Shown piece by piece: positions 1 through 17,540 of a stretch of 64,000 bases of DNA. Numbering within the stretch: position 1 is the first letter of the stretch; every line of letters starts with the position of its first letter. Both the position numbers and the translations under genes were made by a program. The notes below the pieces were generated by a model. The model saw only the letters and a list, made by a program, of their open reading frames with translations. It searched no databases and was not told the origin of the DNA. Source of the stretch: Candidatus Nomurabacteria bacterium (lineage in GTDB: Bacteria; Patescibacteriota; Minisyncoccia; Phycocordibacterales; UBA5272); assembly GCA_028286645.1 (NCBI GenBank), contig JAQBRF010000002.1, forward strand, positions 58,518 through 122,517, in the 5' to 3' direction.

Positions 1-794
1 CAGCAAACCACATACCTCTTAAAAGGTTGAACTCAGAAAGATTATCAGAAAGTTTTGGTAAATTGTTCATTTGATAGACCTCATCAATTCTTCCTGTAAG
101 TAAGCTTTTTTGCTCAGGCGTGAAATTGTATAACCGATAAAATTCATATTCAGAAGATTCAGGAAACCAATTTAAATGCTCTATCATTCCGCCAATGTCA
201 TACCCAAGAGGACCTGAAAAAGAGTCTTCAAAATCTATAACCCCATTTGGATATATATTAAATGGTCCAAAATCGCCATGACAAATAACGAAAGGTATGC
301 GTTCTAACTTCCTTTGAACCTGTGTATAGGCTTCTAGTATTTTTTCTTTGTATTCTGGCAGTTCTTCACAGAGAAGATCTAAATGAATTGCTTTTGTAAA
401 AGCATACCATTTCTTATTATTAGTACACGTTTTCAGCTGCGCTTCTGTGAAGCGGACACATACTTTAATGTAGTTATCAAATGTATCATCAGAAATAACC
501 CCATTTAAAGTGACTTCGTCTCTAAATATAAGGCCAAAATGTTTTTCTCCAAGTGATTCTTCTATGTAGAATTCCATTCCATCTATCTTTCCTTCTTCTA
601 TAAGTTTGGGCACTGGGAAACCAAAAGATTCTAACTTTTTATGAATTACTAAATTCTTTTGAACTTTTTCTTGATCCCCTATTCTGAGGTACTTGAGGCC
701 GGAAATGTATATAGCAGAATCACCACCACGCTGAGTATCTACATGCACGTACTTTTCTCCTTTGAGAGACAGTTCTTTTGGGAATTCCATTCAT
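1..794 (-). CDS. Phosphotransferase enzyme family protein (aminoglycoside/choline-kinase-like), C-terminus runs off window start
   Basis: Reverse-strand translation from ATG ~794 gives MNGIPKELSLKGEKYVH... containing the HGDFGPFN catalytic-loop motif typical of APH/ChoK-like kinases; open to position 1. Confidence 0.6.
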
Positions 795-900
795 AAAGTA
801 TACCCTACCCTGCTCCTCACTATAATATGTGTGCTTTAGTGAATACTGTAGGAACCACTCACTTTAATAATATGGTAAAATTACCCTATCTATAATCACC

Positions 901-1572
901 ATGAAAATAAAGGATCAATACAACGAAATAGGTAAAAATTATTCCCACGATAACCAAACTTTTTTTAAAGAAAAGGGAGAAGTAGATTTCGGGCGACAAT
1001 TCATTTTAGACAATCTTAAAGAAGTCGAGAGTAAAAGCATCCTAGATGTAGGCTGCGGGGCGGGAGATGACATCATGATTTATGAAAAGATGAAGTTTGC
1101 AAAAGTTTTCGGTGTTGACCCTTCTCGACTTATGATTGATCAGGCACTTGGAAAGATCGCGCATAAAGAAAACGTTCAGATCGGTGACTATGAGAACCTT
1201 CCCTTCCCTGATAACAGTTTTGATTATGTCGTGGGGAGATTCTCACTTCATTATGTAGAAAATATAGATAATGCTTATAAAGAAGTTCTCCGTGTACTTA
1301 AACCTGGAGGCCAATTTATAGCTATTGCGGATCACCCGATGGCTGATGCCTTCGAGAAAAAGCGGTATGAAAAAAATGGGAGGACATACATAACCATTAA
1401 ACTATTTGATGGCACAATAGAAGTTACATTCCCTCTACATCTACTGGGTGAATATATATCTGACTACTTTTTAAAATCCTTTAGATTAATTCAATTCAAG
1501 GAGCACGTCGGATCAGAAAGAGAGGTTACTCACGTCCCAAATGCATTTGGCATTACCGCTAAGAAGATTTAA
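901..1572 (+). CDS. Class I SAM-dependent methyltransferase
   Basis: LDVGCGAGDD glycine-rich SAM-binding motif; TATAAT 6 nt upstream of ATG. Confidence 0.8.
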   Translation: MKIKDQYNEIGKNYSHDNQTFFKEKGEVDFGRQFILDNLKEVESKSILDVGCGAGDDIMIYEKMKFAKVFGVDPSRLMIDQALGKIAHKENVQIGDYENLPFPDNSFDYVVGRFSLHYVENIDNAYKEVLRVLKPGGQFIAIADHPMADAFEKKRYEKNGRTYITIKLFDGTIEVTFPLHLLGEYISDYFLKSFRLIQFKEHVGSEREVTHVPNAFGITAKKI

Positions 1573-3937: not shown

Positions 3938-4498
3938 TTACACTGTATCTTTAATAAATACTTTCATCACGATTATAAACAATGTGTGAAGTACCACTGG
4001 TACAACCAAACTACCAGTAACGTAAAAACTGAATCCCAAAAACATTCCTGCCATAAAAGTCATAGTAACGAGTTTCCAGTTCCATTCAGTAAGTCGAAAG
4101 CCTTTTGCTCCGTTTAAAACATGGGCAAGTCCAAAAAATAATGAGGACAAAATTATCGAATTAGGGGCGTCAAGGATTGAATAAAAATATGTCTGTACAA
4201 ATCCTCTGAAAATAATTTCTTCTGGCACTGCAATTAATAGACCTGCGTACAAAATAATTATATGTAATTTAGATAAATTTTTTCTATTTAAACCAATAAC
4301 CCCGAATTTCAAAAAGTAATTTATAGCAAAAAAGATAATGAAAGCACAGATTGTTATTGGAAGTAAAAACACTAAATCTTTCGTACTAAACATAAAGAAA
4401 ACTTGTGGTGATTTCATAAAAATGAAAAAATACACGCAAAAAAGAACATATATAGAAACTATAAAATTATGATACCTAGATTTAAATAGAGCTTTCAC
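3938..4498 (-). CDS. CPBP family intramembrane metalloprotease (CAAX protease / Abi-like)
   Basis: EEIIFRG ... FGLAHVLN motifs in multi-TM protein. Confidence 0.7.
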   Translation of the reverse strand: MKALFKSRYHNFIVSIYVLFCVYFFIFMKSPQVFFMFSTKDLVFLLPITICAFIIFFAINYFLKFGVIGLNRKNLSKLHIIILYAGLLIAVPEEIIFRGFVQTYFYSILDAPNSIILSSLFFGLAHVLNGAKGFRLTEWNWKLVTMTFMAGMFLGFSFYVTGSLVVPVVLHTLFIIVMKVFIKDTV

Positions 4499-4613
4499 TT
4501 TAGTGAATAAAGTATACCAGTTCCACTCTATCTACAATTCGCTAAGGATATGCAAATGTTGTAACTAAAAATTCCCTGTTGATTCAGGAGATTTTTAGTA
4601 ATTATTCATTGCT

Positions 4614-4700
4614 GTGGTGTAGTGGACTCCATTATTTACTTAGGAGAAAGATGGGTTAGAAAATAAGCAGTACCCTTGTAGTAGGTTATAGGAACTGAGA
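4614..4700. repeat. Intergenic repeat element B (~85 bp) copy
   Basis: gtggtgtagtggactccattatttacttaggag...agaaaataagcagtacccttgtagtaggttataggaactgagat; near-identical copies at 7244..7326 and 9449..9528, truncated or degenerate copies at 3878..3937, 3541..3585 and 5359..5440; always directly 3' of a minus-strand gene stop. Confidence 0.8.
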
Positions 4701-4707
4701 TGGGGGT

Positions 4708-5322
4708 TTACCAAGGTCTCGGGCGTTCCCTTTTAGCCCGCGCTTCAATTTGTGGAGCCTCTTTGATTAAATCTTCTTCGGATTTACCGGACACTTCTAG
4801 ATACCGCTGCTTTCTCCAGTATGTTGCCCATTCCATCAACCAGTCGACCTCCTTAACAAACCGATCTTCAGAAAGCGTTGCGTCCTTGAAATCTTTCCTA
4901 AGAACTAGTTGAGGCATACCCGAGTTTAAAGGTTGTTCATTTATATAGAAATAACCCTCGCCAAGCGTAGAAGGCTCACGATCTCCCGCCCTTTTAACTT
5001 CATCAAAAAATTCTTTTCTTTTAATCATGAGGTGGGCATCATTTACTACAAGACCAAACACTGAAAACTGTCCATCGTTTGCGGAGTAACTGAACTCGGC
5101 AGCTCCGAGTATCACTTTGAAATCCTGTTGGTCTTCTTTAAGAGAGACGTTATCTCCTATTTTCTTCCCATAGGCGGTTACATATTTTTTGGCTTCTTCG
5201 TTTGTCATGTGTTTTGGTACATTATTAGATGTTTGTATATTAAATCCTTTTTTATAATACATAAAGCCTGCACCTATAAGGAGCAATATGGCCACAATTA
5301 TTAAAGACTTTTTCATATTCAA
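4708..5322 (-). CDS. Secreted/anchored hypothetical protein, paralogue of 6467..7123
   Basis: N-terminal signal anchor; shared C-terminal ...EE(D/E)LIKEAP...R(P/K)xxW* with 6467..7123. Confidence 0.55.
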   Translation of the reverse strand: MNMKKSLIIVAILLLIGAGFMYYKKGFNIQTSNNVPKHMTNEEAKKYVTAYGKKIGDNVSLKEDQQDFKVILGAAEFSYSANDGQFSVFGLVVNDAHLMIKRKEFFDEVKRAGDREPSTLGEGYFYINEQPLNSGMPQLVLRKDFKDATLSEDRFVKEVDWLMEWATYWRKQRYLEVSGKSEEDLIKEAPQIEARAKRERPRPW

Positions 5323-5441
5323 TCAAAGTATATCAGTAATTAACCGCATTCTTCACTGTGGTTAGTGGGCTATAAAGAACTTCTTTATTGCTTAGGAACA
5401 TCCTCTCATCACCCTATATTTTATGTAGGACATAAACAGGA

Positions 5442-5672
5442 TTAGAACTCATGAAAAAGAGAATAGAGTAAATACCCTGCTGAAACAATTCCTACAATTA
5501 CCGCAATTATCATCAAACTTATATCCCAAATTCCATTACAAGGAAATGAATTTAAAGAGTTTTGGGTGCAGGGTACTACCTTATCGATTATATGTCTTGA
5601 GAAGAGCGCCCTATTACCGATGATAAATAAAATAGCTGAAACTACAAGACTAATAATTGATATTTTTATCAT
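5442..5672 (-). CDS. Small membrane protein
   Basis: 76 aa, two hydrophobic helices, own upstream AAGTATATC box. Confidence 0.4.
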   Translation of the reverse strand: MIKISIISLVVSAILFIIGNRALFSRHIIDKVVPCTQNSLNSFPCNGIWDISLMIIAVIVGIVSAGYLLYSLFHEF

Positions 5673-5776
5673 ATTTGAAGTATATCAGTTCGCTAACGTT
5701 GATTGCTAAGTATCGAACACAATCTTTAACCCTTTGGCTACACAGTAAAAATTAGAGCAGTCCCACTATGGCAGTA

Positions 5777-6022
5777 TTAATTATCAAGTACTTGAGAAAT
5801 TAGCTCGATGAAGTCCTTAGCCCTCTTTTTTTGCTCAACCGATAAACTTTCTTCTTTTATTAATTCTTGCAAATAAAAACGGACGCCCATTAAAGCTTCA
5901 GATCCTAATGAAGCACCTTCAACAACTGTGTTAATTTTATTTTGCCAAGCGTTTAAACCTTTTTCTCCCAATTCTGCGGTAAAGTTTCTAACGTCATCAT
6001 AAAAGTTACTTGGAAGAGTCAT
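5777..6022 (-). CDS. Small hypothetical protein
   Basis: 81 aa ORF with upstream AAGTATATC box. Confidence 0.4.
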   Translation of the reverse strand: MTLPSNFYDDVRNFTAELGEKGLNAWQNKINTVVEGASLGSEALMGVRFYLQELIKEESLSVEQKKRAKDFIELISQVLDN

Positions 6023-6125
6023 CCAAGAAGTATATCAGTTCCCAAGGAACTATTACCATATAGAAAACCAAGATTTTTAATAATCCTTGGATGTCATTAT
6101 GACTTAGACAGAAGTTTCGTGAATT

Positions 6126-6359
6126 TTAATGGTAAACACCGTTTTTGATAAACCACAGGAACCACACTAAAAAAATAAGTACGATCACGATAAGCGCTCG
6201 TCCCAACCACACAAGCCATATAGGGTGATAAAAGATTAGCAATATTGCTAACCCTGCCAAGACAAATGCAATGGGAACAAATGGAAAGGTATTCCACCAG
6301 AACGACCATGCCGCAACTGCAAATAGAATAATTATAGTAATTAGCACAGATTTTGACAT
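6126..6359 (-). CDS. Small membrane protein
   Basis: 77 aa, two TM helices, module A upstream. Confidence 0.4.
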   Translation of the reverse strand: MSKSVLITIIILFAVAAWSFWWNTFPFVPIAFVLAGLAILLIFYHPIWLVWLGRALIVIVLIFLVWFLWFIKNGVYH

Positions 6360-6466
6360 AGCGTTAATTTTGTATGCTATAAGTATACCAGCTCCTACCT
6401 CTCCTCCATATTATATTTAATGTAGTTATACCTGTCCCTCTCTCTAGTTAGCAGCTGGAAGGAAAA

Positions 6467-7123
6467 TTACCATGATTTTGGTCTATTCTTTAGCATGAAT
6501 TCATTTATTCCAGGAGCTTCTTTAATAAGTTCTTCTTCTGTTTTTGCATTTATTTCATTAAATCTGTTTACAAACCAATAATCTGCATCTGAGAGGAGCC
6601 ACCCTATTTGAATTTGTAGGTTTTTCCCATTAGTAATAGGCGCTGTGTACGTTTTTGTTAGAAGGAGCACATCCGGATTCAAATCAAAAAGTGGCTCGCG
6701 CAAAAGTTCAAATTGAGCCTCGCCATACATCATGGTGGTATATTCACGCTGTCCAATACGCACTAATCGGTCCCATAGCACGGGATATTTACTTAGTGTT
6801 TTGATGTCATATCTTACTAATCCTGAGACCAATAATTGCTTTTTTTCTGCATCATACCGAAAGATAGCTCCTTTTACGCGTACTGGCAGACCCTTTGGAA
6901 GGTCACTTTCCAGAGAACCGGTAATGTTCAAGGGAGCAGCATTAGATTCTTTAATCCATAGTTTTACTATAGCTTGAGCATCTTCAATTGTTAGTGTCTC
7001 AGCTTGAGATTGTTGAGTTATATGCTGTAATTCGAGTTTTGGAATAGGTGTGCTAGATCTTTTATAAAAATAAAAGGCGCCTAACATTAATATAATTATT
7101 ACAATTATTCCTACTTTATTCAT
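6467..7123 (-). CDS. Secreted/anchored hypothetical protein, paralogue of 4708..5322
   Basis: Signal anchor; conserved C-terminal segment shared with 4708..5322. Confidence 0.55.
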   Translation of the reverse strand: MNKVGIIVIIILMLGAFYFYKRSSTPIPKLELQHITQQSQAETLTIEDAQAIVKLWIKESNAAPLNITGSLESDLPKGLPVRVKGAIFRYDAEKKQLLVSGLVRYDIKTLSKYPVLWDRLVRIGQREYTTMMYGEAQFELLREPLFDLNPDVLLLTKTYTAPITNGKNLQIQIGWLLSDADYWFVNRFNEINAKTEEELIKEAPGINEFMLKNRPKSW

Positions 7124-7243
7124 TTCATAAGTATACCAGCACTTACCCTATGCTGCTTCACGCTATATTTAGTCCATTTGCGACTACGCTCAGGACACTA
7201 AAATTTAAACTTCACTTCGTTCAAATAAATTAAAGTGTGTGCT

Positions 7244-7326
7244 GTGGTGGACTCCATTATTTACTTAGGAAGGAAGTGAGCTAGAAAATAAGCAGTATCC
7301 TTGTGGTAAGGTATAGGAACCGAGAT
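7244..7326. repeat. Intergenic repeat element B copy (part of the full B-C-A module 7127..7326)
   Basis: Direct sequence identity to 4614..4700; followed by element C (7175..7213) and promoter module A (7127..7170). Confidence 0.8.
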
Positions 7327-7769
7327 TAATCAGAAAAAGTAGAAAAGAAAGAAATCTCTCCTGTTTTCTTATTTAGCGTTAACCCCTGATACTCAGCTGG
7401 AATTCCTTCAGATTTTGGAGATCGTTCCCCCAGCTGTTTCTCAAGTTGACCAAGCAATATGTCGCCGCCTCTAAATAATCTAAATTGACTATTAGAGATA
7501 CTCGCACCTAATGGGTTCAATTTTGTACTTAGTTCATGGATAAACCCTTCCACATCTTCTGTTTCTAAACCAAAAGATAGATGGGCCGCTCCTGCAACTT
7601 GAACTCCAGGATCATAAGCGGTCAATACGGCACAAGACCCTCCCGGTAAAACCTCTAATGTTTCTACTTTGCTATTTGGACCTATGACTTCAATAGAGTT
7701 AGTTAGTACTTCTATTGATCGTCCCTGTTCACTTTGATTTTCAAAAAATTGTTTCGGCTCTTGTTCCAT
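7326..7769 (-). CDS. Hypothetical protein, possible CheD-like fold (GGSCAV...AGAAHL)
   Basis: Track ORF trimmed to the ATG 8 nt after the TATACT box; GGSCAVLTAYDPGVQVAGAAHL resembles the CheD Cys/His motif region (weak). Confidence 0.45.
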   Translation of the reverse strand: MEQEPKQFFENQSEQGRSIEVLTNSIEVIGPNSKVETLEVLPGGSCAVLTAYDPGVQVAGAAHLSFGLETEDVEGFIHELSTKLNPLGASISNSQFRLFRGGDILLGQLEKQLGERSPKSEGIPAEYQGLTLNKKTGEISFFSTFSD

Positions 7770-7836
7770 CCCTAAAGTATACCCTACTCCTCTCCACACT
7801 ATATTAGTGTGCTATGTAGAGATTACACGAATTGCA

Positions 7837-8367
7837 TTAACTAAAAAGGGAATTGTAAGCTGATTCTAAAGAAGCATTTCTATCTGGATAAATATCAAAA
7901 TAAGGAAAATTGTTTTTAGATGCCTCTTGTTCTATCTTTTTACTTTTTTTAATAAAGTATTCTGGAAGAGTGTTTTGCTTTTCTTGTGATAAGTTACTTA
8001 CCCAGTCTGACTTAGGGTCACTCTTTTTTATATCTTCCAAAGTTATGTTGCTTGTACCCAAGAAACAACACCTCAATTCTATCTTCTCTTTAAGAGATGT
8101 GACTTGCTCGGGGGTAAACAGGTCTCCTTCTATAACATAATCCTCATATTTGTTTTGAAGAATTTTCAAAAATTGCAGTAAATAAGGAAAAAACACTTCT
8201 GCCTTTTTATCTTCTTCCAAAGCTTTAAGCCCTAGTTGGGTGGGTGAAGAATCTAAAAGATTCCTTATTACATCAGTTGAAATATTAGAAATATGCTTGC
8301 GTTCAAGCATGAGAGCCGCCAACGTACTCTTTCCGACTCTTGCTGTTCCTCCAATAAGATAAATCAT
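7837..8367 (-). CDS. P-loop NTPase / kinase-like protein
   Basis: Walker A GGTARVGKST near the N-terminus after trimming the track ORF to ATG at ~8367. Confidence 0.6.
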   Translation of the reverse strand: MIYLIGGTARVGKSTLAALMLERKHISNISTDVIRNLLDSSPTQLGLKALEEDKKAEVFFPYLLQFLKILQNKYEDYVIEGDLFTPEQVTSLKEKIELRCCFLGTSNITLEDIKKSDPKSDWVSNLSQEKQNTLPEYFIKKSKKIEQEASKNNFPYFDIYPDRNASLESAYNSLFS

Positions 8368-8474
8368 TGCATAAGTATACCCTACTCCCCACCACCCTAT
8401 TGAAATACATATAAGGATGTGTGCCCTTCGGACTACCTTAGGACAATCAATTTTCAACTCAGACGATATTAGGA

Positions 8475-9413
8475 CTATTTTATTTTCTTTTTGAGAAATT
8501 TCAGAACATGAGTATCTGTATATGTAGCTATATCCAGTTCTTTCGAAAAGATATTGATTAGATTTTTCTTTTCTGCTAGTGAGATTTCATTACTGCCAGG
8601 AACATGTACAGAGGCAAGGGCGATATTTTGGTGTTCTTCAATAAAAGAACGTATTTCCTCTCCTCCATCTTTAAAAAGTCCATCGTCAAGAATGTCCTGT
8701 CCATCGTACGAAGCTCGGACAAGCGCATTAAATACTTGATCTTCGGGAACGCCGGAATAGACATGTATCTTGTGTATCAAAATATCTATAAGCATTCTTC
8801 CAATATCATACGTTCTATAATATCCTTCTTCTATCATAGAGCTATTTCCTGATCGTCTAAGATATTCTTCCAGCACTTTATCAGCAATCTTTTCTACCAG
8901 CCCTTCGTTAAAAGCAACACGTGTCCTATTAAAATTTTCATCATTACTAGTCAAACCAGAGACCTCAGCTGAGATTGATGTACCGTCCTTTTCCTCAAAA
9001 TCCTCATACCCGGAAAATTGAGTAGTATGTACCTGTTCGTGAATGAGCAGTTTGAGGGTTATTAATCTCTTTCTCAACTTCTCATTCAAGATAGGTGTGA
9101 TGAATTTGAAATTTGCAGGATTGAAATGCAATGCCGATCGTTCCCCCATTTTTTCCCCAGTTGATTTGTCTACAATAGGCTCTATACCCGCTGTTGCCGC
9201 AAAATAAAATGCGTCATAGAAATATTTTATGTCTTCCTTTTTCACAAATTCCATATCCTTCTCATCTAGTCCCGCTTTCTTATATATTTCTTCGAATATG
9301 GTGCGCAGTAGATCAAAATCCACCCTCTCCAAGTCCTCTTGAATCTTTTCCTTGGATCCTTTAAAAACTTCCTCTTTTGTTTTTTCCCAAAGACTTTTAC
9401 TTTCCATCACCAA
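8475..9413 (-). CDS. HExxH-motif protein, putative zinc metallopeptidase (HEQVHTTQ, DUF4157-like HExxHxxQ pattern)
   Basis: LLIHEQVHTTQF motif; acidic cytoplasmic-looking protein. Confidence 0.5.
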   Translation of the reverse strand: MVMESKSLWEKTKEEVFKGSKEKIQEDLERVDFDLLRTIFEEIYKKAGLDEKDMEFVKKEDIKYFYDAFYFAATAGIEPIVDKSTGEKMGERSALHFNPANFKFITPILNEKLRKRLITLKLLIHEQVHTTQFSGYEDFEEKDGTSISAEVSGLTSNDENFNRTRVAFNEGLVEKIADKVLEEYLRRSGNSSMIEEGYYRTYDIGRMLIDILIHKIHVYSGVPEDQVFNALVRASYDGQDILDDGLFKDGGEEIRSFIEEHQNIALASVHVPGSNEISLAEKKNLINIFSKELDIATYTDTHVLKFLKKKIK

Positions 9414-9448
9414 AGTATACCTTACTCTCCTCTATACTATTTGGTACC

Positions 9449-9528
9449 GTAGCGGACTCCATCAGTTAGGAGCAGAGCGACTTAGAAAATAAGCACCACC
9501 CTGGTGGTAGGTTATAAGAACTGGGATT
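9449..9528. repeat. Intergenic repeat element B copy
   Basis: gtagcggactccatcagttaggag...agaaaataagcaccaccctggtggtaggttataagaactgggatt. Confidence 0.75.
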
Positions 9529-9611
9529 AAAAAATAGAAACTATTTAATACTAAACTTTAGTCTCTCAGATTTTTCATTCATATAAATATCTATTTTAAA
9601 CAGTTGCAAAC

Positions 9612-10145
9612 TTAAATAAACACATTTAAATATTTAGTAACCGCAAGAAATTCATCATAAAGATTATGCTCTTTTAAAACAGAAATAAATAAAGGATGTG
9701 TGTACCCATCAGCAATAAATTCATGAATATCTTTCCTGTAATTAAAGAATGTTAACCCATCCTTCTCTATCCCGTCAGGAAAGATATCTTTTATCTTTTC
9801 AAAAAAAGTTTTTAGTTCTTGTGTAACTTCTTGTCGAAATTCAATTGCATGAATAATTTCATGCCTCTTTGTTATTTCAGATGTACCAGAGTAAAATAAT
9901 AATGCGTCAAGTCTATCTACATAAGCTCCATTAGCTGTTTTACTAGGAGCTGTATTAAGGTAATAGGCTGGAATGTCGCGCTGTAAATTAAAACCAAATT
10001 CCTTGGCTAAAGTTACAGCATTTTCTACTTTCATTATCTGCATCTTAGTTTGAGTTCCGTCTTTCTCAGTCAAAGAGAAAGTATCTCCTTCTTTTTTCCA
10101 AGGGACTAACGGGTCTCTCACTAATAATGTGGGTTGTTCTTCCAT
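9612..10145 (-). CDS. HExxH-motif protein, putative metallopeptidase-like
   Basis: RHEIIHAIEF motif; track ORF trimmed to ATG after the TATACT box. Confidence 0.5.
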   Translation of the reverse strand: MEEQPTLLVRDPLVPWKKEGDTFSLTEKDGTQTKMQIMKVENAVTLAKEFGFNLQRDIPAYYLNTAPSKTANGAYVDRLDALLFYSGTSEITKRHEIIHAIEFRQEVTQELKTFFEKIKDIFPDGIEKDGLTFFNYRKDIHEFIADGYTHPLFISVLKEHNLYDEFLAVTKYLNVFI

Positions 10146-10190
10146 CTCCAAAGTATACCCTACCCTGCTCCACACTATGTTAAAAGACTC
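10146..10190 (-). promoter_or_regulatory. Conserved promoter/leader module A (gene-sense ATATAGTGTGGAGCAGGGTAGGGTATACTTT-N4-ATG)
   Basis: Same ~45-bp sequence found upstream of the genes starting at 794, 3788, 6359, 7123, 7769, 8367, 9413 and 10145; TATACT ends 7-9 nt before the ATG. Confidence 0.6.
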
Positions 10191-10327
10191 AGGTGCGCCT
10201 TACCGAACCTTCATTCGTTTCACTCCTTTTGGTTTTAAGAACCCACGGTTCTCAACGCTCGTAAACTCGCTGCTCTCCTCCACATGAAAACTCCCGTTTT
10301 CTTGACACCTTTCCCACCAGTAGACAC

Positions 10328-10369
10328 AAGTTCAAATCCCGATAGGTATACCTATCGGGATTTGAACTT
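10328..10369. repeat. Perfect 42-bp palindrome built from two inverted tRNA-His 3'-end-like halves
   Basis: AAGTTCAAATCCCGATAGGTATACCTATCGGGATTTGAACTT equals its own reverse complement; half-site cctatcgggatttgaac differs by 2 nt from tRNA-His cctaccgggattcgaac; a further gtgtgcctaccggga copy follows at 10373..10390. Confidence 0.8.
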
Positions 10370-10572
10370 TCTGTGTGCCTACCGGGACTTACTTGGAACA
10401 CCATAGAAAAACAAATAACTTCGTAGAAAAACATCTTTGTTTCTGACATATATAAAGATTACATTTCTAATAAGCCCCAATTTATATGAGTCCTCGCCCA
10501 TTTGTCGTAAAAAGGTATTACCGTATCTGATATTAAACACCATTCGTATCTAAATCTACTTACTGCTATTAT

Positions 10573-11514
10573 TTGCTTATGCAGAAACGACATCATTTTA
10601 TACCCGATTCCTATCAGAGAAATTTTATTAACAATGAGGGAAAAGTATGGGTATTAGATAAAGAAAAAAAACTTTTTCAGACTAATCCTACAAACATCTT
10701 TGCGGAGGCGTACTTCTATTTACTTCCTGGCACTACCGAGGAAGAACAGTTGCGAGTAGAAAATCTGTTAGGTCTTATCGAAACCGACTTCGGGGCAATC
10801 TATAAGGAGAAAATTAATATAGGGCTTCAGATGACGCAAATGGAAAAAGGCAAACTTTCATACTTTGTTGCATGTATGTACCTGCGGACTAAATTTATGC
10901 GTAATCAGAATCTTGATATGTATAAAAAAATGAGGTCTGCAATGCAGGAGTGGGGAGAACATTATAAAAACATGTCTGATGAGCAGAAAGAAACATTTGC
11001 TTCTCTTCACCATTCAAGTGATAGTGCGACTATTACGATAGATGACATGGACTATGCTATCGAAAATAATAATGAAATTCATACTGAACAACTTATATCC
11101 CTTCTTCCAGAGATTGCTGATATTTTATTTAATATGGAGTAGTTTTTTTTGAGCCCTCAGAATACCAACAAAACTTTTATAAGTTCTGATAATCCTTTTT
11201 GTATGATAAGACCAGAAGCTATTGCAAAATTTGGTCTCAATAAATTTGGAAGTCTACCTGGTCTAAAGGCTAAAGACGTAGAAGTTTCACTTCCTCTTTC
11301 ATCTACTAAAATGCTATTTATGAGTTGGAACTTAAAATCAGAGGTGTTCATGAAAATACCAGATGATAATGTCGATGTATTTAATGCTCGAAGTAGATTA
11401 CATGCTCATGATAAATTAATAGCCTCGAATAAAGAGGTCCTTCAGGAGATTGTTGATAAATCAGACGGAAAAGATAAGAACGATTTTAATATGTTTGATT
11501 TCGAAACTAAGTAG
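10573..11514 (+). pseudogene. DUF4238-family gene split by an in-frame stop (ORFs 10573..11142 and 11149..11514)
   Basis: N-terminal HHFIPDSYQRNF...VWVLDK matches the DUF4238 H-x-x-P-x-x-Y...F signature; the second ORF continues directly after a stop and contains SDNPF; combined length ~310 aa is typical for the family. Confidence 0.5.
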
Positions 11515-11541
11515 AGGATTAGACTTTATATACTCTGTAAG

Positions 11542-11733
11542 TTACTTAAACTTACAGTCAGTTAAGTACCCTCTTTCGTCGATAACTGCCATGCCCACTT
11601 GCTTACGGCACCTTATAACATCTTGATTTGAATCTCCTATGTGTACACCTGGGTAATGCGCCTCTTTAGGTTCATTTGCTTTTATAGAAAAAACCCCAGC
11701 AATTAATACAATAATTATTAAAAAATACTTCAT
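11542..11733 (-). CDS. Small secreted protein (signal peptide MKYFLIIIVLIAGVFS)
   Basis: Track ORF trimmed to internal ATG preceding the hydrophobic signal; hairpin terminator directly downstream at ~11521..11545. Confidence 0.35.
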   Translation of the reverse strand: MKYFLIIIVLIAGVFSIKANEPKEAHYPGVHIGDSNQDVIRCRKQVGMAVIDERGYLTDCKFK

Positions 11734-12074
11734 ATTTGCATTTTGGAAGCAAAAAGCCCCCAAGGTTGACGACCTTTCGGCCGCCCATATCCGTTTCCAG
11801 ATACGTCTCACTACAAACAAACTCTTGGAACCGTAATTACTCAATGTGATAATAGTTTTGCAACTACTTGTTATGGAAACCATGGGGGCCTACCGGGAAT
11901 TTCTTCGACAAGTATTTGTTCGCCGCCGCTCACAAATCTCGCCTCCCGCCCCTCGCCCATTTTCCTTGCTAGAAAAATATGGCTGTGGTCTTCGAATCCG
12001 GACGTAAACAAAGCAGTTTGTTTACTTAGGCACACCAAATACAAAAACGGCCATAAAGACCGTTTTTGTATTTG

Positions 12075-12179
12075 GTGTGCCTAGTCGAGACACCGGTCGA
12101 ACTTCTCGCGAAATTGCAGAGATGTTTTTAAGCACTATCCCGCAGGCAACGTCTCGACGTCCTGATGTCCCTACTACAC
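12075..12179. repeat. ~105-bp direct repeat copy 1 (begins with tRNA-His 3'-end-like gtgtgcctagtcgagacaccggtcgaac)
   Basis: About 80% identical to 13223..13327; preceded by a perfect 20-bp-stem hairpin 12029..12081. Confidence 0.75.
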
Positions 12180-12560
12180 AGCAGAATCTTCGTCTGCAGT
12201 AGTTCGCTTCTGTCTTTTTTCTTCTTGATAGTCATTCCAGAGAAGCAGCAGAAAGTCACTCATAGCTGCGTCAGCTTGACGAAGTTCTTCTTCGGTGAAG
12301 TCCGGGAAGATCTCGCGAATCACTGGTGCGACTTCCATATCTTCGGGTAGGCGTTTGGGGTGCATGGGGCGATGGGAGGCTCTGAGGTTATTAGGCAGAG
12401 CTAACGCTATCCATAGCACGATATTGACAAATGTCCAAAATATGATTGGATATAAGTAAGTAGTTCTTGTCCTCAGTATTTGGTTGCGGAATGAAGTTCG
12501 AGACTTAAGCAGTTCGCGAATTTCTCCCCTAACCAAGACGAGGTCAGCATGCAGATCCAC
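12174..12560 (-). CDS. Hypothetical membrane protein in GC-rich insert (alternative to or overlapping the 12549 ORF start)
   Basis: One predicted TM helix; long ORFs in GC-rich DNA can be spurious. Confidence 0.3.
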   Translation of the reverse strand: MDLHADLVLVRGEIRELLKSRTSFRNQILRTRTTYLYPIIFWTFVNIVLWIALALPNNLRASHRPMHPKRLPEDMEVAPVIREIFPDFTEEELRQADAAMSDFLLLLWNDYQEEKRQKRTTADEDSAV

Positions 12561-13013
12561 GAGAAGATTGGAAAGTTGGGTGCATCGGTATTCCTGATGT
12601 CAATGATCCCGAACACTCCCGAAGGGAACGAAGCGATCGACACTATGCTTGCGAAAGCGGGCGCGCAGATGCTGCTGTGGTGCAACGCGCTTTACTATCC
12701 GACGATGGAGTTCGCCGAGTGGGTGCATCAACAAGAAACTCGCATTGAGGAGCGTTTCAAGGCAAACCCTGCTTTGGATCGCATGAAAAAAGAGGCGGAT
12801 TTCCTTCTCGAAGCCCACTGGGATCAGGAGTTAGAAGAAGCTCGCGAGGAATACGCAAACGATCCCGAGCATCGAGCTATGGTGGCCCGAATCAACGAGA
12901 AGATCGAGGAGCGGCTCGCCGCGGATCCGGAACTACGTCGGGAGTTTGAGGAAGGACTGGCAGCACATATCGCTCTTGTCTGCGAACAAAGCGCCCGCAA
13001 ACGGATTCACTAA
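12549..13013 (+). CDS. Hypothetical Ala/Glu-rich protein in GC-rich insert
   Basis: GC3-rich codon usage unlike the surrounding genome; SD-like ACGAGGT 5 nt before the ATG. Confidence 0.4.
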   Translation: MQIHEKIGKLGASVFLMSMIPNTPEGNEAIDTMLAKAGAQMLLWCNALYYPTMEFAEWVHQQETRIEERFKANPALDRMKKEADFLLEAHWDQELEEAREEYANDPEHRAMVARINEKIEERLAADPELRREFEEGLAAHIALVCEQSARKRIH

Positions 13014-13222
13014 CATTCTCCTTCTGGGAAAACACTTCAGGCGGCCCTCCCGGGCTGCCTTTTTACTTTTGATGCCAAATAGAGAAAGTATCCGTCAAGA
13101 ACACACTTTGCAAAAGTGTACAAGGCTGGTCGAGGAGAAAACGCTTACTCTGTAAGTCTCATTTGCAATGCAACAAATTACTTTCTCCGCAAGACTACAA
13201 AAATTGCCAAATTTTCCTATTA

Positions 13223-13327
13223 GTGTGCCTACTCGGGACACCGGTCGAACTTTGAGTGAAATTGCCGAGTTGTTTTTAAGCGTCATTCCGCAGCCAACAT
13301 CTCCACGTCCTAACATCTCTACTCACT
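13223..13327. repeat. ~105-bp direct repeat copy 2
   Basis: gtgtgcctactcgggacaccggtcgaactttgagtgaaattgccgagttgtttttaagcgtcattccgcagccaacatctccacgtcctaacatctctactcac. Confidence 0.75.
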
Positions 13328-13875
13328 AACAGCGGCCCTTCAAAATTGACAGCTTGAGTATGCGTGTTAGGCTGAAATTGGATATCGCTTTACATATCCT
13401 CATAGTCGAGCCCCATGAACTCCGCAGCCCGGAGTGCCAACGACCTCCTATGACCGCCATTGCGGCTTAGCCCCTTCCGAATCGGAGGGGCATTTTTGTT
13501 TCTCAGAGTTGCCTCTCGGTCCCAATATGTAACCGTTACGCGCTTTGAGGTTTTGTCTATGCTAAATGTGGTCGATATTATTAGCCAAGACCAAGAACAC
13601 ATATGGAAACACTAGGAGACCGCTTCCTTGCGCCAACCGCTCGGGAGAACCTCTTTGAGTCAATAGACTATCTTCACGAATCGATTCGTAATGCACGCGA
13701 ATGCGTGTACGACATCGAGCGAAGCATAGACGCTTCGCTTGATGAGATTCGAGGAAAGAAGCCTGAGGCAGCTCAAGAGAAGAAGTAGGGTGTAGCTAAT
13801 ACACCCCTCTCACGAAGACGAATATCGTGGGGGACATGGATTTAAGTTGCAGAAACGCAATGCGATTTGAATCTG

Positions 13876-13949
13876 TGTGCCTACCGGGATTCGAACCCGG
13901 ACTGAGGGCTCCACAAGCCCGCGTGCTAACCATTACACTATAGGCACCA
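13876..13949 (-). tRNA. tRNA-His (GTG)
   Basis: Reverse complement GGTGCCTATAGTGTAATGGTTAGCAC...cuuGUGgag...GGTTCGAATCCCGGTAGGCACA; cloverleaf with G-1; no encoded CCA. Confidence 0.85.
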
Positions 13950-14035
13950 TCTGCTACATTCATTTCTGAATTAGGCCTTTACTCTAACATGATTTCAAGA
14001 TTTTTCGAAGAAATTATGATAGTATTTCCTTACTT

Positions 14036-14119
14036 GCCCAGGTGGCGAAACTGGTAGACGCACTACCTTGAGGTGGTAGCGCTGGCAACGGCATGGAGGT
14101 TCAAGTCCTCTCCTGGGCA
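14036..14119 (+). tRNA. tRNA-Leu (GAG), long variable arm
   Basis: GCCCAGGTGGCGAAACTGGTAGACGC...cttGAGgt...GGTTCAAGTCCTCTCCTGGGCA. Confidence 0.85.
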
Positions 14120-14385
14120 CAATTTTTTAAACGGCTTCGGCCGTTTTAAATTTGGGCGACACCTGCGTGTCGTACGTAAGGACTTCCGGAGTATGATCCC
14201 GTTTTCTTAGATTATAATCAATCTCTTGAAATCGCAGTCCTTTAGGATTTTGCGAGCACGCAAAACGACGAGGAGTGGCCGGCGAACTTTTCTGCTCGGC
14301 GGAGAGAAAAGATTTGTCGAAAAGGCCCTCCTCTACACAAGTCAACTTTTAAATTAAAATCTCGATCTTTCGATCGAGATTTTAA

Positions 14386-14814
14386 TTATGCTGCGACTTC
14401 TTCTGGAGCCTCTTCTTTCGCTACTTCCATTGTAGTAGTTGACCCTTTCTTTACCACGCGAGTGTCTTCCTTCAACTTTCGGCGTACATCTCTAAGAGCC
14501 TTATCACGAACATAGTAAAGCTTACTTCGTCTTGTTCTTGAGCGTCGAACAATTTCAATCTTATCAATCATCACTGAATAAAGAGGGAAAATTCTCTCTA
14601 CTCCTACGCCTGAAGTAACCTTTCGTATTGTAAATGTAGCCCCCATTTCAGCTCCGTGCTTACGAGCAAGAACCATTCCTTCAAAGGCTTGAAGACGGGT
14701 CTTTCCGTCAGACTCTTTAATTTTATTCCAGACACGAACAACGTCTCCGGATGAAAAATCCAAAGCTTTTCGCTCATCCATGTTGACGGGTGTGAATTTA
14801 ATAGTAGTTTTCAT
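14386..14814 (-). CDS. rplS: 50S ribosomal protein L19
   Basis: FSSGDVVRVW...MIDKIEIVRRSRTRRSKLYYVR typical of L19. Confidence 0.9.
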   Translation of the reverse strand: MKTTIKFTPVNMDERKALDFSSGDVVRVWNKIKESDGKTRLQAFEGMVLARKHGAEMGATFTIRKVTSGVGVERIFPLYSVMIDKIEIVRRSRTRRSKLYYVRDKALRDVRRKLKEDTRVVKKGSTTTMEVAKEEAPEEVAA

Positions 14815-14873
14815 AAGATGCTCTTAGTAGGAAAATACTATCACGAATTATGGCCTTTTGCAAGCGGGAATCT

Positions 14874-15605
14874 TCAGTCTACCCCCTTAAAATTAAGTGC
14901 TTTTAAGGAAGCTTTCATGTCCTTAGGAATTGGAGAAATGATCGTCATTTTTTCTTTGCCGGCATTCTCTAATGGAACTTCAAGAGTAATGGAGTATGCA
15001 TGAAGCATAGACCTTGGCGCTTCATTTTTGCCTTTAAAAGAACCATACAGATCGTCACCTAAAATGGAATGCCTTATGCCTCGGAAATGCGCTCGGATCT
15101 GATGAGTGCGCCCTGTCACTGGATACACTTCTACATATGAATAATGTTTCCCATCAGGAGATAATGACCTTTCTAAAACCTTATATCTAGTTATTGCATC
15201 CCGCTCCTCCCCTCTTTGATCTTTCGCAAACATATCTACTACTGTTCGCTTGCGGAAATCGCTTCGTGCGCGTGCTATTGGAAGAGAAATCATGCCTGTA
15301 TCGTTTCTTATATGCCCTTCTACTATTGCCCGATATACCTTACGCACCGTGTGATCTTTGAATTGTTTTTTAAAACTTGTATATGCCACATTATCTTTAG
15401 CAAGCACAAGCACTCCAGTAGTATTTCTGTCGAGGCGATGTACTATTCCTTCTCTTCCTTCATCTCCAATTAAAACTTTGTAGGTATCTTTTACCCAGTC
15501 TGCGATAGTATATTCGGACTGTCTGCCATCCGGATGCACCATAATACCCGCCGGCTTATCAATTATGACGGCGTGAAAGTTTTCAAAAAGAATAGGGATT
15601 TTCAT
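14874..15605 (-). CDS. RluA-family pseudouridine synthase
   Basis: HRLDRNTTGVLVLAK catalytic Asp motif. Confidence 0.85.
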   Translation of the reverse strand: MKIPILFENFHAVIIDKPAGIMVHPDGRQSEYTIADWVKDTYKVLIGDEGREGIVHRLDRNTTGVLVLAKDNVAYTSFKKQFKDHTVRKVYRAIVEGHIRNDTGMISLPIARARSDFRKRTVVDMFAKDQRGEERDAITRYKVLERSLSPDGKHYSYVEVYPVTGRTHQIRAHFRGIRHSILGDDLYGSFKGKNEAPRSMLHAYSITLEVPLENAGKEKMTIISPIPKDMKASLKALNFKGVD

Positions 15606-15656
15606 ACTGCCTACTCTACCATATTTTATATGTGAACTACGAGCCTTTAATCCGTG

Positions 15657-16364
15657 CTAATTTAGCATAAACGGATTAAAGTTCGTACCTCTGTCGTAAG
15701 TATCTAAGCCTTCCTTGTGTTTAATAAATTTTATTACTCTGTGTGTAACAGGTAATGCGATTATTTCCCAAGCCGTACAGAAAACAACGGTAGATATTGT
15801 TAGCGGAATAACTTCATGTAATGGAAACCATCCGGCAAAGTAAAACGCTGAGAAAAAAGCTATGGAATTATCGACTGTTTGCCCGAAAAATGTAGACACG
15901 ATAAGGCGCGCGTGCATAAACTTTCCATTCGTCAACAGCTTCATTTTTGCAACAACAAAAGAATTCGTTAACTCTCCCAGAAAGTTCGCGACGAGGAATC
16001 CGAGTGCAACTATTGGTGAGGCCCTAAAAATCACGTCAAAGGCTTCGTTGTATGGAAAGGCAGGGTTGGGCACGAAACTGTATAAAGATGTAAGAGTTGT
16101 GGAAAGAATCATACAAGTAAATCCTGTCCAGATAATTTTCCTGGTCACCCTATAACCATAAACTTCAGTAAATATGTCTGCGAATATATAAACGAATGGA
16201 TAAGCAATGGCACCAACAGAAAAAACAAAGTCGCCAATATAAAAAGTTTTTAAGGCGGTAAAAGTAGAAACAAGATAAAAAGTAAGCCAAAGCATGCCAA
16301 AAACACCTAGGTACTTATGCACCGAGCTTGCTGAAGTCGTTGGATCAGTTATAAGATGTTGCAT
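15657..16364 (-). CDS. Multi-pass membrane protein, possible queuosine-precursor transporter (YhhQ/DUF165-like)
   Basis: Six or more TM helices; weak resemblance only. Confidence 0.45.
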   Translation of the reverse strand: MQHLITDPTTSASSVHKYLGVFGMLWLTFYLVSTFTALKTFYIGDFVFSVGAIAYPFVYIFADIFTEVYGYRVTRKIIWTGFTCMILSTTLTSLYSFVPNPAFPYNEAFDVIFRASPIVALGFLVANFLGELTNSFVVAKMKLLTNGKFMHARLIVSTFFGQTVDNSIAFFSAFYFAGWFPLHEVIPLTISTVVFCTAWEIIALPVTHRVIKFIKHKEGLDTYDRGTNFNPFMLN

Positions 16365-16572
16365 CGCGAGAAAATTAATTAAAGATTGACTTCAGTGGCT
16401 TCGTTTGGACTTGATAATCTTTTATCTCCACCAGTTATTTCTAATTGTCTAATGAGCATTTGTCAAAATAAAAGTGCCTAAAATTACTTATATTTCATGT
16501 AAATAAACCGTTTCTATATGTTTTTTGTCAAAATAGTCGACAAAAAGCAGATAGAAATGTTAGGCTATTTCT

Positions 16573-17319
16573 ATGGATAAAGCACTCGTGACATCGTTGG
16601 AAGAAATAGGATTTAAGCACAAAGAGGCTTTGGTTTATGTAGCTTTAACATCTGTTGGAGAAAGCCAGGTGAGCGAGCTTGCGATATTAACAAAACTAAA
16701 GAGGCCGATAATCTACGTAATCTTGGAAGATCTAATTAAAAGAGGCTTCGTCTCTAAGTTGCCCGGGAAGAAAGTAAATACATACCATGCATTTGATGCG
16801 GACATTATTCTGAAAAAGTTAAAGTCGAGCATCACCCACTTTGACGAACTTATTCCCGTCTTTAAAACATTAAGAAATCGAGGCGGCGTTCGACCGAAGA
16901 TTTCATACATAGAAACAAAAGAAGGTATAGAAAATTTGCTAGAAGAAATAAACTATACGGTCTCCCCTCTTTTTATATCTTCCTATGCAAGATTTGAGCA
17001 TCATTTCCCCGGAGTGCTAATGCGCTGGATAAAAAATTATAAAAAAGGCCTCTATAAAAAACTGGTAGGTCGTCATATAGTTCCAGACGATAAAAAAGAA
17101 TTCTTTTATGCGAAAGCCTTCCTTGGCATTAAACAGAATGTACGAACGCTTTCAATATTGAAAGAAAATAAAATGGATATTTCTATTTATGCAGATAAAA
17201 TTTCAATAACAAACCTCGGGGACGCTCTTTTTGCTGTTGTTATCGAATCAAAAGATTTGGTCGGCTCTATACGTCCTATTTTTGAATTAGCTTGGCAAAA
17301 CGCAAAAGAGATAAAGTAA
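16573..17319 (+). CDS. TrmB-like HTH transcriptional regulator
   Basis: N-terminal LEEIGFKHKEALVYVALTSVGESQVSELA winged-helix motif. Confidence 0.5.
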   Translation: MDKALVTSLEEIGFKHKEALVYVALTSVGESQVSELAILTKLKRPIIYVILEDLIKRGFVSKLPGKKVNTYHAFDADIILKKLKSSITHFDELIPVFKTLRNRGGVRPKISYIETKEGIENLLEEINYTVSPLFISSYARFEHHFPGVLMRWIKNYKKGLYKKLVGRHIVPDDKKEFFYAKAFLGIKQNVRTLSILKENKMDISIYADKISITNLGDALFAVVIESKDLVGSIRPIFELAWQNAKEIK

Positions 17320-17329
17320 AAACATTTCT

Positions 17330-17350
17330 GTGGGAGATACAGGACTCGAC
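17330..17350. repeat. Direct duplicate of the tRNA-Val 3' end (att-like scar)
   Basis: gtgggagatacaggactcga repeats tRNA-Val 17468..17487, 117 bp away. Confidence 0.6.
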
Positions 17351-17464
17351 TACAAGTTTTCTTTCGCCGTCGCTCAAGAAACTCGCAGCCCGCGGCTCGT
17401 GGTTTTTCTTGTTAGAAAAACATCACTGCGCCCTTCTCGTCCTGCAAAACAAAACCATTTGTTT

Positions 17465-17540
17465 TGGTGGGAGATACAGGACTCGAACCTGTGACCTTCT
17501 CGGTGTAAACGAGTTGCTCTACCAACTGAGCTAATCTCCC
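17465..17540 (-). tRNA. tRNA-Val (TAC), CCA encoded
   Basis: Reverse complement GGGAGATTAGCTCAGTTGGTAGAGC...uuUACac...GGTTCGAGTCCTGTATCTCCCACCA. Confidence 0.85.

Follow-up and report, generated by a model that had tools for sequence, protein, structure and literature searches.

Genomic islands at tRNA genes with a layout like the one reported here have been described: Islander-type islands lie 3' of a tRNA gene that stays intact, repeat the 3' end of that tRNA at their far end as a displaced direct copy, correspond to an empty site in relatives and have a foreign base composition (PMC4383910). In this study, we analyzed a locus of this kind at the tRNA-His gene of a Candidatus Nomurabacteria bacterium, within a 64,000-nucleotide stretch of a metagenome-assembled genome (MAG), here called the window. 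A 1.8-kb insertion there carries two direct repeats, DR1 and DR2, and we consider it probable that these repeats are attachment-site (att) arms closing two integrase-less units, E1 and E2, that entered by successive site-specific integrations at the tRNA-His 3' end. In contrast to the Islander islands, this locus has no integrase gene, its units measure 0.65 and 1.15 kb, exact identity with the tRNA is limited to 9-10 nt, and the repeat adds an element-specific arm of ~95 nt.

Elements without an integrase of their own accrete in tandem at att sites (PMC5704250). Like these cis-mobilizable elements (CIMEs; ICESt1-type), the units described here keep att sites and carry no integration or transfer genes, and the tandem units share an att site at the target-gene end. 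Unlike for CIMEs, no related autonomous integrative and conjugative element or integrative and mobilizable element was found here, the host is a member of the candidate phyla radiation (CPR) with no conjugation genes in view, and mobilization in cis, a CIME feature, would be putative at most. In the tycheposons of Prochlorococcus, one tRNA gene is hit repeatedly, and each new integration moves the earlier arrivals further out (bioRxiv 10.1101/2020.12.28.424599); that system also resembles ours in the partial tRNA copies scattered through the island and in its streamlined genome. However, the units studied here have no tycheposon-type integrase, replication or packaging genes and are an order of magnitude smaller. 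Because the layout matches that of tRNA islands, with outward-pushing integrations and tandem accretion, we read E1 and E2 as two integrations.

Integron cassettes and their attC sites are a further point of comparison, since in both cases short units with one or two orphan open reading frames (ORFs) are stacked beside a fixed entry point, and each unit is trailed by a site of ~100 nt, all of these sites sharing one orientation. Unlike attC, the site here has no imperfect palindrome and no R'/R'' cores (paired R''/L'' and L'/R' boxes), and the entry point is a tRNA 3' end. The neighbors are tRNA-Leu, rplS and rluD, with no IntI or attI, and a motif scan for tyrosine recombinases was negative, which is a weak test. 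To our knowledge, little is known about the mobile DNA of CPR bacteria (Patescibacteria), whose tiny genomes are thought to have few routes for gaining genes. What is new here is a variant of the known tRNA-targeting insertions in which the inserted units are tiny, lack an integrase and stand in tandem at the 3' end of a tRNA gene of a CPR bacterium.

RESULTS

A 1.8-kb Insertion Relative to Related Genomes

The original prediction had placed the boundary of an element at the repeats and had overlooked the tRNA-His gene 550 bp to their right, which forms the real boundary at 13875. Listed outward from this gene, the locus is composed as follows, with the X element being a structured module considered further below.

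13875-13947, minus strand: tRNA-His (GTG) gene (ARAGORN; Rfam tRNA model, 66.5 bits), the proposed integration target, with its 3' end (low coordinate) facing the insertion
13220-13874: unit E2, tRNA-proximal, 48.5% GC, with JWN37_104, a promoter-like site and a terminator at 13470-13491 (plus strand), and DR2 at its outer end
13220-13323, minus strand: DR2 (copy 2), ending on the minus strand in the tRNA-His core TAGGCACAC (13223-13231)
12072-13219: unit E1, outer, 49.4% GC, with DR1, JWN37_101, JWN37_102 and a terminator at 13039-13060 (plus strand)
12072-12175, minus strand: DR1 (copy 1), ending in the core TAGGCACACC (12074-12083) and joined directly to native tRNA-His downstream sequence
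12027-12083, minus strand: hairpin with a perfect 24-bp stem (-45.6 kcal/mol, z = -13.2), homologous to hairpins directly 3' of tRNA-His in loci L008 and L011
11884-12035, minus strand: X1, an X element of the tRNA-His type, a 150-nt module (covariance model R1, 150 bits, E 6e-37) ending in a decayed tRNA-His 3' copy at 11883-11900
10388-11882: older layer E0, 34.5% GC, with a secreted-protein gene and a DUF4238 pseudogene, closed on its outer side by a tRNA-His 3' copy
10194-10387, minus strand: outermost tRNA-His 3' copy (exact 15-nt copy, 10373-10387), followed by a palindrome (10329-10368) and a trailing module of another type

We compared the window with 80 loci around rplS, fetched from related Paceibacteria genomes. 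To the right of the insertion lie tRNA-His, tRNA-Leu (14036-14120, plus strand), rplS and a pseudouridine synthase gene (rluD), and the order rluD-rplS-tRNA-Leu-tRNA-His is conserved across the 80 loci; to the left are the split DUF4238 gene and several genes without a family match. DNA similarity to the relatives almost always ends at the tRNA-His 3' end (~13875; more than 50 loci). Immediately behind the 3' end of tRNA-His, L008 and L011 have a homologue of 12083-11884 (79% over 199 nt), comprising the same hairpin, the 150-nt element and the tRNA-His 3' copy, and the alignment joins the window exactly at TAGGCACAC, the end of DR1. Such an empty site (tRNA-His, hairpin and X) is present in eight species (L008, L011, L044, L051, L055, L077, L078 and L080), where tRNA-His and X are 26-55 nt apart compared with 1840 nt in the window. 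Since tRNA-His stands directly before the hairpin in relatives, the window corresponds to an L008-like layout plus a 1.8-kb insertion (12084-13874). Judged from these alignments, the stretch is an insertion relative to the relatives, with an outer junction exactly at the tRNA-His core.

By the same comparison, the hairpin is chromosomal and lies outside the inserted DNA: one arm is the tRNA-His acceptor 3' strand, which is now the end of DR1, and the other is an inverted copy that starts the X element. The hairpin, which the original prediction had assigned to the element, thus belongs to the conserved downstream region of tRNA-His (hairpin and X). Its stem, given before as 20 bp, measured 24 bp (arms 12027-12050 and 12060-12083). 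Strong hairpins had been described ahead of both repeats, and this held for copy 1; ahead of copy 2, the region 13160-13232 folds like its shuffles (z = +0.67).

The Direct Repeats End in the tRNA-His 3' Sequence

The direct repeat itself was confirmed (12072-12175 and 13220-13323). Its copies align without gaps over 104 nt at 81% identity (blastn E 1.6e-23), and blastn found two copies only in the window. Gapped similarity extends to about 12040-12192 and 13195-13337. The tRNA-His-like head previously noted in the repeats proved to match, in reverse complement, the final nine bases of the actual tRNA-His gene, and it goes well beyond chance: for the 9-mer GTGTGCCTA, 0.12 occurrences would be expected in the window and five are present, at 13875 (the tRNA), 13223 (copy 2), 12075 (copy 1), 12027 (inverted, in the other hairpin arm) and 10373. 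All five fall within 3.5 kb (10373-13883), four of them in tRNA orientation, and the decayed copy at 11883-11900 is a sixth tRNA-His 3' copy. The cores occupy 12075-12083, 13223-13231 and 13875-13883. Read on the tRNA strand, both repeats consist of ~95 nt of unique sequence followed by ...AAGTTCGACCGGTGTCYCGASTAGGCACAC, and their last ~28 nt resemble the 3'-terminal third of tRNA-His, except that other sequence takes the place of the T-loop. The repeats had been taken as the two ends of one miniature element; we read them instead as the same, tRNA-distal, end of two tandem units.

Several other identities for the repeats were rejected. Neither ARAGORN nor the Rfam tRNA model found a cloverleaf that would make them a tRNA gene or pseudogene, even at E up to 5, and they matched no Rfam family at the gathering threshold or at E up to 5. 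RNAalifold on two and then three copies, on both strands, gave 0-1 compensatory pairs, which speaks against a structured RNA, and the copies share neither a common inverted repeat nor the imperfect palindrome of an attC site. A protein-coding repeat was rejected because in none of the frames are the differences between DR1 and DR2 chiefly synonymous, and no frame shows purifying selection; the one frame that stays open is called as a gene in the contig L082 (see below) and, in the window, as JWN37_103, with mostly nonsynonymous changes and no Pfam match. A miniature inverted-repeat transposable element does not fit, because the repeats are direct and the unit ends share no inverted repeats. 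The repeats scored 1.4 bits against the covariance model R1 compared with 150 bits for the neighboring 11884-12035, indicating that the hairpin side belongs to the X family and the repeats do not.

Exact-pattern scans found no further repeat copy in genomes (a collection evidently without the host MAG itself), metagenomes (two different blocks) or viral contigs; blastn gave no match in plasmid or phage collections, and nhmmer against the 80 related loci returned the two window copies only.

A Third Copy of the Repeat in an Unrelated Context

An exact-sequence look-up led from the 63-aa gene JWN37_101 to a relative 92% identical on L082, a Logan contig of 1783 nt (50.8% GC) assembled from a different run, which carries a third repeat copy in an unrelated context. 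Positions 1295-1588 of L082 match 12367-12074 of the window, a 294-nt module of the 63-aa gene and DR1, at 92.9% identity. Past the core, L082 continues into unrelated DNA with no hairpin and no tRNA. In a three-way alignment, the similarity of all repeat copies stops right after TAGG(C/T)ACAC(C). Because the three copies break at the tRNA-His core, we regard the repeat and its core as a sharply bounded, portable module; it recurs in a third, unrelated context with the same break base and behaves like an attachment site. The att arm thus recurs in another sample. DR1 is 93% identical to the L082 copy, DR2 is 83% identical to it, and DR1 and DR2 are 81% identical to each other; a recent in-place duplication is disfavored by this, since DR1 has its nearest match in L082 and not in DR2. 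Between the window and L082, 9 of the 13 differences in the 63-aa gene are at third codon positions (8 synonymous and 5 nonsynonymous codons).

This 1.8-kb fragment is the sole relative that we found; searches of genome, metagenome, viral, plasmid and phage collections returned none. The possibility, raised with the original prediction, that the repeat occurs only here and that the ORFs lack homologues came close to describing the public databases, and it was overturned by L082 with its 63-aa gene and repeat. In place of the 154-aa ORF of the window, L082 has beside the 63-aa gene an OLD-family ATPase-nuclease gene (2-1147, minus strand; AAA_21, AAA_15 and TOPRIM). OLD-family ATPase-nuclease genes are common in defense islands.

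Cargo of the Inserted Units

E1 and E2 share nothing except the repeat. Their cargo is three small orphan genes.

12174-12365, minus strand: JWN37_101, 63 aa, forming with DR1 the 294-nt module conserved in L082
12549-13013, plus strand: JWN37_102 (ORF154), a 154-aa orphan, with GC of 0.645/0.355/0.619 at codon positions 1/2/3; its NCBI entry lies on a 251,735-nt contig
13603-13788, plus strand: JWN37_104, a gene within E2

The inserted stretch 12084-13874 has 49.1% GC against 39.6% for the window. A GC-rich segment had been reported between the repeats, and its composition was borne out (49.4%), although high GC is not confined there and spans ~11750-14300. The reported bias of the ORF at 12549-13013 toward G+C at third codon positions (GC3) was likewise reproduced, at 0.62 against a host mean of 0.365. 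This raised GC3, together with a GAGG upstream of the start and the intrinsic terminator at 13039-13060, makes ORF154 look like a real gene. On the minus strand, the 63-aa gene is a more likely product than the 128-aa ORF at 12174-12560 proposed earlier, because homology to L082 begins at 12367, which does not fit the longer frame.

ORF154 found itself only among 5.8 billion proteins and in a full HMMER scan, apart from one weak coiled-coil-like match, and its AlphaFold model has a pLDDT of 54. The 128-aa ORF had no homologues and ORF61, the E2 gene JWN37_104, found itself only. None of the cargo ORFs matched Pfam, PHROG, NCBIfam or PADLOC, and the cargo DNA had no blastn match to plasmids or phages. 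A 54-aa version of the minus-strand ORF (12174-12338) was clustered at 90% with proteins of 515-533 aa to which it has no visible similarity, which is probably an artefact. E2 also contains a candidate small RNA at 13345-13495 (plus strand), where a promoter-like TTGACA...TAGGCT is followed by ~115 nt up to the strong terminator at 13470-13491; the stretch folds at -41.6 kcal/mol (z = -3.2).

Older Layers Lie Further Out

The tRNA-His 3' sequence recurs beyond the insertion, and in the alignments the older layers further out are seen to end in it as well. The layer E0 holds two genes.

11542-11733/11883, minus strand: small secreted-protein gene
10573-11514, plus strand: DUF4238 pseudogene, with one in-frame TAG at 11140-11142

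The two halves of the latter match profile positions 1-184 and 192-280 and are split by the TAG, and it is therefore considered a pseudogene. Beyond the copy that closes E0 lie the palindrome and the second module, homologues of which directly follow tRNA-His in L015, L022 and L044. The locus is clearly a hot spot of site-specific insertion at a tRNA gene, with at least three stacked layers of cargo.

The palindrome is perfect and consists of a tRNA-His-like T-loop-to-acceptor segment and its inverted copy, nested in the hairpin after tRNA-His; we saw the same palindrome in three genomes (window 10329-10368, L022 about 3984-4048 and L044 about 15835-15878). In L015, homologues of 10194-10328 and 4558-4611 are contiguous, which makes the ~5.6 kb between them (4612-10193) a further insertion relative to L015. 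That stretch contains five minus-strand genes with no Pfam match, two of which have weak P-loop kinase matches.

A parallel case was found in L044 (2850-4926), where tRNA-Arg is followed by 1.84 kb of cargo, a copy of the last 9 nt of tRNA-Arg, a hairpin and X. The cargo there is two genes on opposite strands, laid out like that at tRNA-His in the window but without a GC shift. No integrase was found beside tRNA-His in the relatives, by eye or by motif, except in L064 (Niyogibacteria; 14388-17530), which has a tyrosine-recombinase-like ORF (16364-17530, minus strand) 2 kb downstream of tRNA-His; no matching direct repeat was found within the fetched locus, and the ORF is not tied to any repeat.

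DISCUSSION

Two Probable Successive Integrations at tRNA-His

We propose that each repeat would represent ~95 nt of element DNA and a 9-10-nt core (TAGGCACAC[C], minus strand) equal to the last bases of tRNA-His, and that the DNA entered right at the 3' terminus of the gene, with the tRNA on one side and its conserved hairpin and X on the other. The crossover inside the shared core would have been made by a recombinase acting in trans, which we take to be a tyrosine integrase because other islands in tRNA genes use one, and the incoming DNA would have restored the end of the tRNA gene. This restored site would then have received a second integration that displaced E1 outward, E2 presumably being the younger unit. 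The original prediction was largely right in what it observed. Its integrated foreign element with cargo agrees with the empty site, the GC shift and the third copy on an unrelated contig, whereas the anatomy it gave was wrong.

Several observations weigh against two successive integrations. The exact core is only 9-10 nt long, and the remaining tRNA-like stretch of the repeat has diverged. No integrase or recombinase is encoded in the 1.8-kb insertion, nor was one found among the window ORFs by motif scan (a weak test), and genome, metagenome, viral, plasmid and phage collections yielded no related element that is autonomous. Where the tRNA meets E2 (13809-13875), the sequence is present in the MAG contig only and falls outside the independent Logan contig. 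In addition, the DNA past the DR2 core weakly resembles the hairpin past the DR1 core, a likeness that local duplication would explain as well.

Such a duplication is the basis of an alternative in which a single foreign insertion at tRNA-His, or a homologous swap between the conserved tRNA and X flanks, was followed by local duplication of the repeat together with the hairpin-like flank beside it and by divergence of the copies to 81%. It would account for the gapped similarity that passes the core into the flank (12040-12071 and 13195-13219) and for the presence of two copies only in units that otherwise share nothing. The extra flank similarity is A/T-rich, however, and lies in a region without a hairpin fold (z = +0.67), and DR1 matches L082 (93%) better than it matches DR2 (81%), DR2 matching L082 at 83%; the two window copies must therefore have diverged before they lay side by side. 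We regard this course of events as unlikely.

It is less probable still that the repeats are paralogous minus-strand small RNA genes with a tRNA-His-like 3' end and a terminator, next to which the ORFs would be incidental. DR1 is indeed followed on the minus strand by a terminator-like hairpin with a T run, and the X elements show that RNAs ending in a tRNA 3' copy may exist in this lineage, but neither DR2 nor the L082 copy has a strong terminator behind it. The absence of an Rfam match, the 1.4-bit score against the X model, the 0-1 compensatory pairs in the two- and three-copy alignments and the lack of an nhmmer homologue in the 80 related loci count against this proposal too. Very improbable, in our judgment, is an assembly chimera, in which tRNA-like repeats would have led to the fusion of the Nomurabacteria contig with GC-rich DNA from a different organism. 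The contig does come from a MAG, the insert has foreign GC and orphan genes, and L082, from another run, carries the same module in a 51% GC context beside the OLD-family ATPase gene. Yet an independent Logan assembly matches 10340-13809 at 100%, spanning both the DR1/hairpin junction and DR2, the shared cores of 9-10 nt are too short to mislead an assembler, and the junctions lie at biologically sensible positions. Successive integration at tRNA-His remains the reading that we prefer.

X Elements behind tRNA Genes

The X element at tRNA-His is one of a family. The following counts were taken over the window and the 80 related loci (1.1 Mb). An exact direct repeat of the gene's own 3' end, 12-20 nt long, lies within 50-230 nt downstream of 33 of 313 tRNA genes, and these direct copies begin in the T-loop. 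An exact inverted copy of at least 8 nt lies within 100 nt of 46 of 312 tRNA genes, with none in a reversed-sequence control. Between the copies lies a conserved module, for which an alignment of ten sequences showed compensatory changes in 27 of 36 pairs; its G-U pairs fit the tRNA strand only. The covariance model R1 gave 72 matches (3 in the window and 69 in L002-L081), 62 of which share their strand with a tRNA gene that ends at most 300 nt, and usually 40-50 nt, upstream of them. The tRNAs so trailed are those for Val, Leu, Arg, His, Ser and Lys, and X stands behind about one in five (~20%) of the tRNA genes in this bacterial group. In the alignment of all 72 sequences, which was fitted to the R1 model and is thus biased toward structure, 94.5% of cells pair compared with 41-52% when the partners are slid, and there are 517 double changes compared with 56-102 in the slid controls. 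The helices of X covary strongly, 35 of the 36 pairs showing compensatory changes.

From 5' to 3', X consists of a strand like the 5' strand of the acceptor stem, hairpin H1, a strand like the 5' strand of the T-stem, hairpin H2, the long hairpin H3, in which an invariant A bulges out 7-8 nt short of the end, and the tRNA's own T-loop-to-discriminator sequence, such that both ends of X copy the 3' end of its own tRNA. Two further occurrences lie in the window.

17330-17477, minus strand: X (Val), a match to R1
14036-14323, plus strand: tRNA-Leu (14036-14120) with its own hairpin and a partial X (14247-14323)

The arrangement at tRNA-Leu shows that X elements belong to the chromosome of this bacterium. 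X matches no family in Rfam 15, and we found no description of it in the literature. Recent spread of X is not supported, as interiors from the same genome are no more alike than those of same-tRNA copies in other genomes (0.57 compared with 0.56), a pattern that fits an old, mostly inherited family.

X could be an RNA that mimics the top half of a tRNA and is processed together with it, or it could be a folded recombination site. A broader and rather doubtful suggestion is that the hairpin and the tRNA-His heads are part of an undescribed tRNA-anchored system of Paceibacteria (CPR), with X and the repeats serving as single-strand recombination sites or guide-like RNAs; cargo layers would then build up between tRNA and X, each closed by a tRNA 3' copy. 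If these are indeed folded sites or guide-like RNAs, the system would amount to integron-like or RNA-directed cassette acquisition that uses tRNA 3' ends as entry points and has no linked integrase.

X is more novel than the insertions and is the part that deserves follow-up. As an RNA, it would be a new tRNA-linked RNA class; as a DNA site, it may account for cassette uptake in these genomes.

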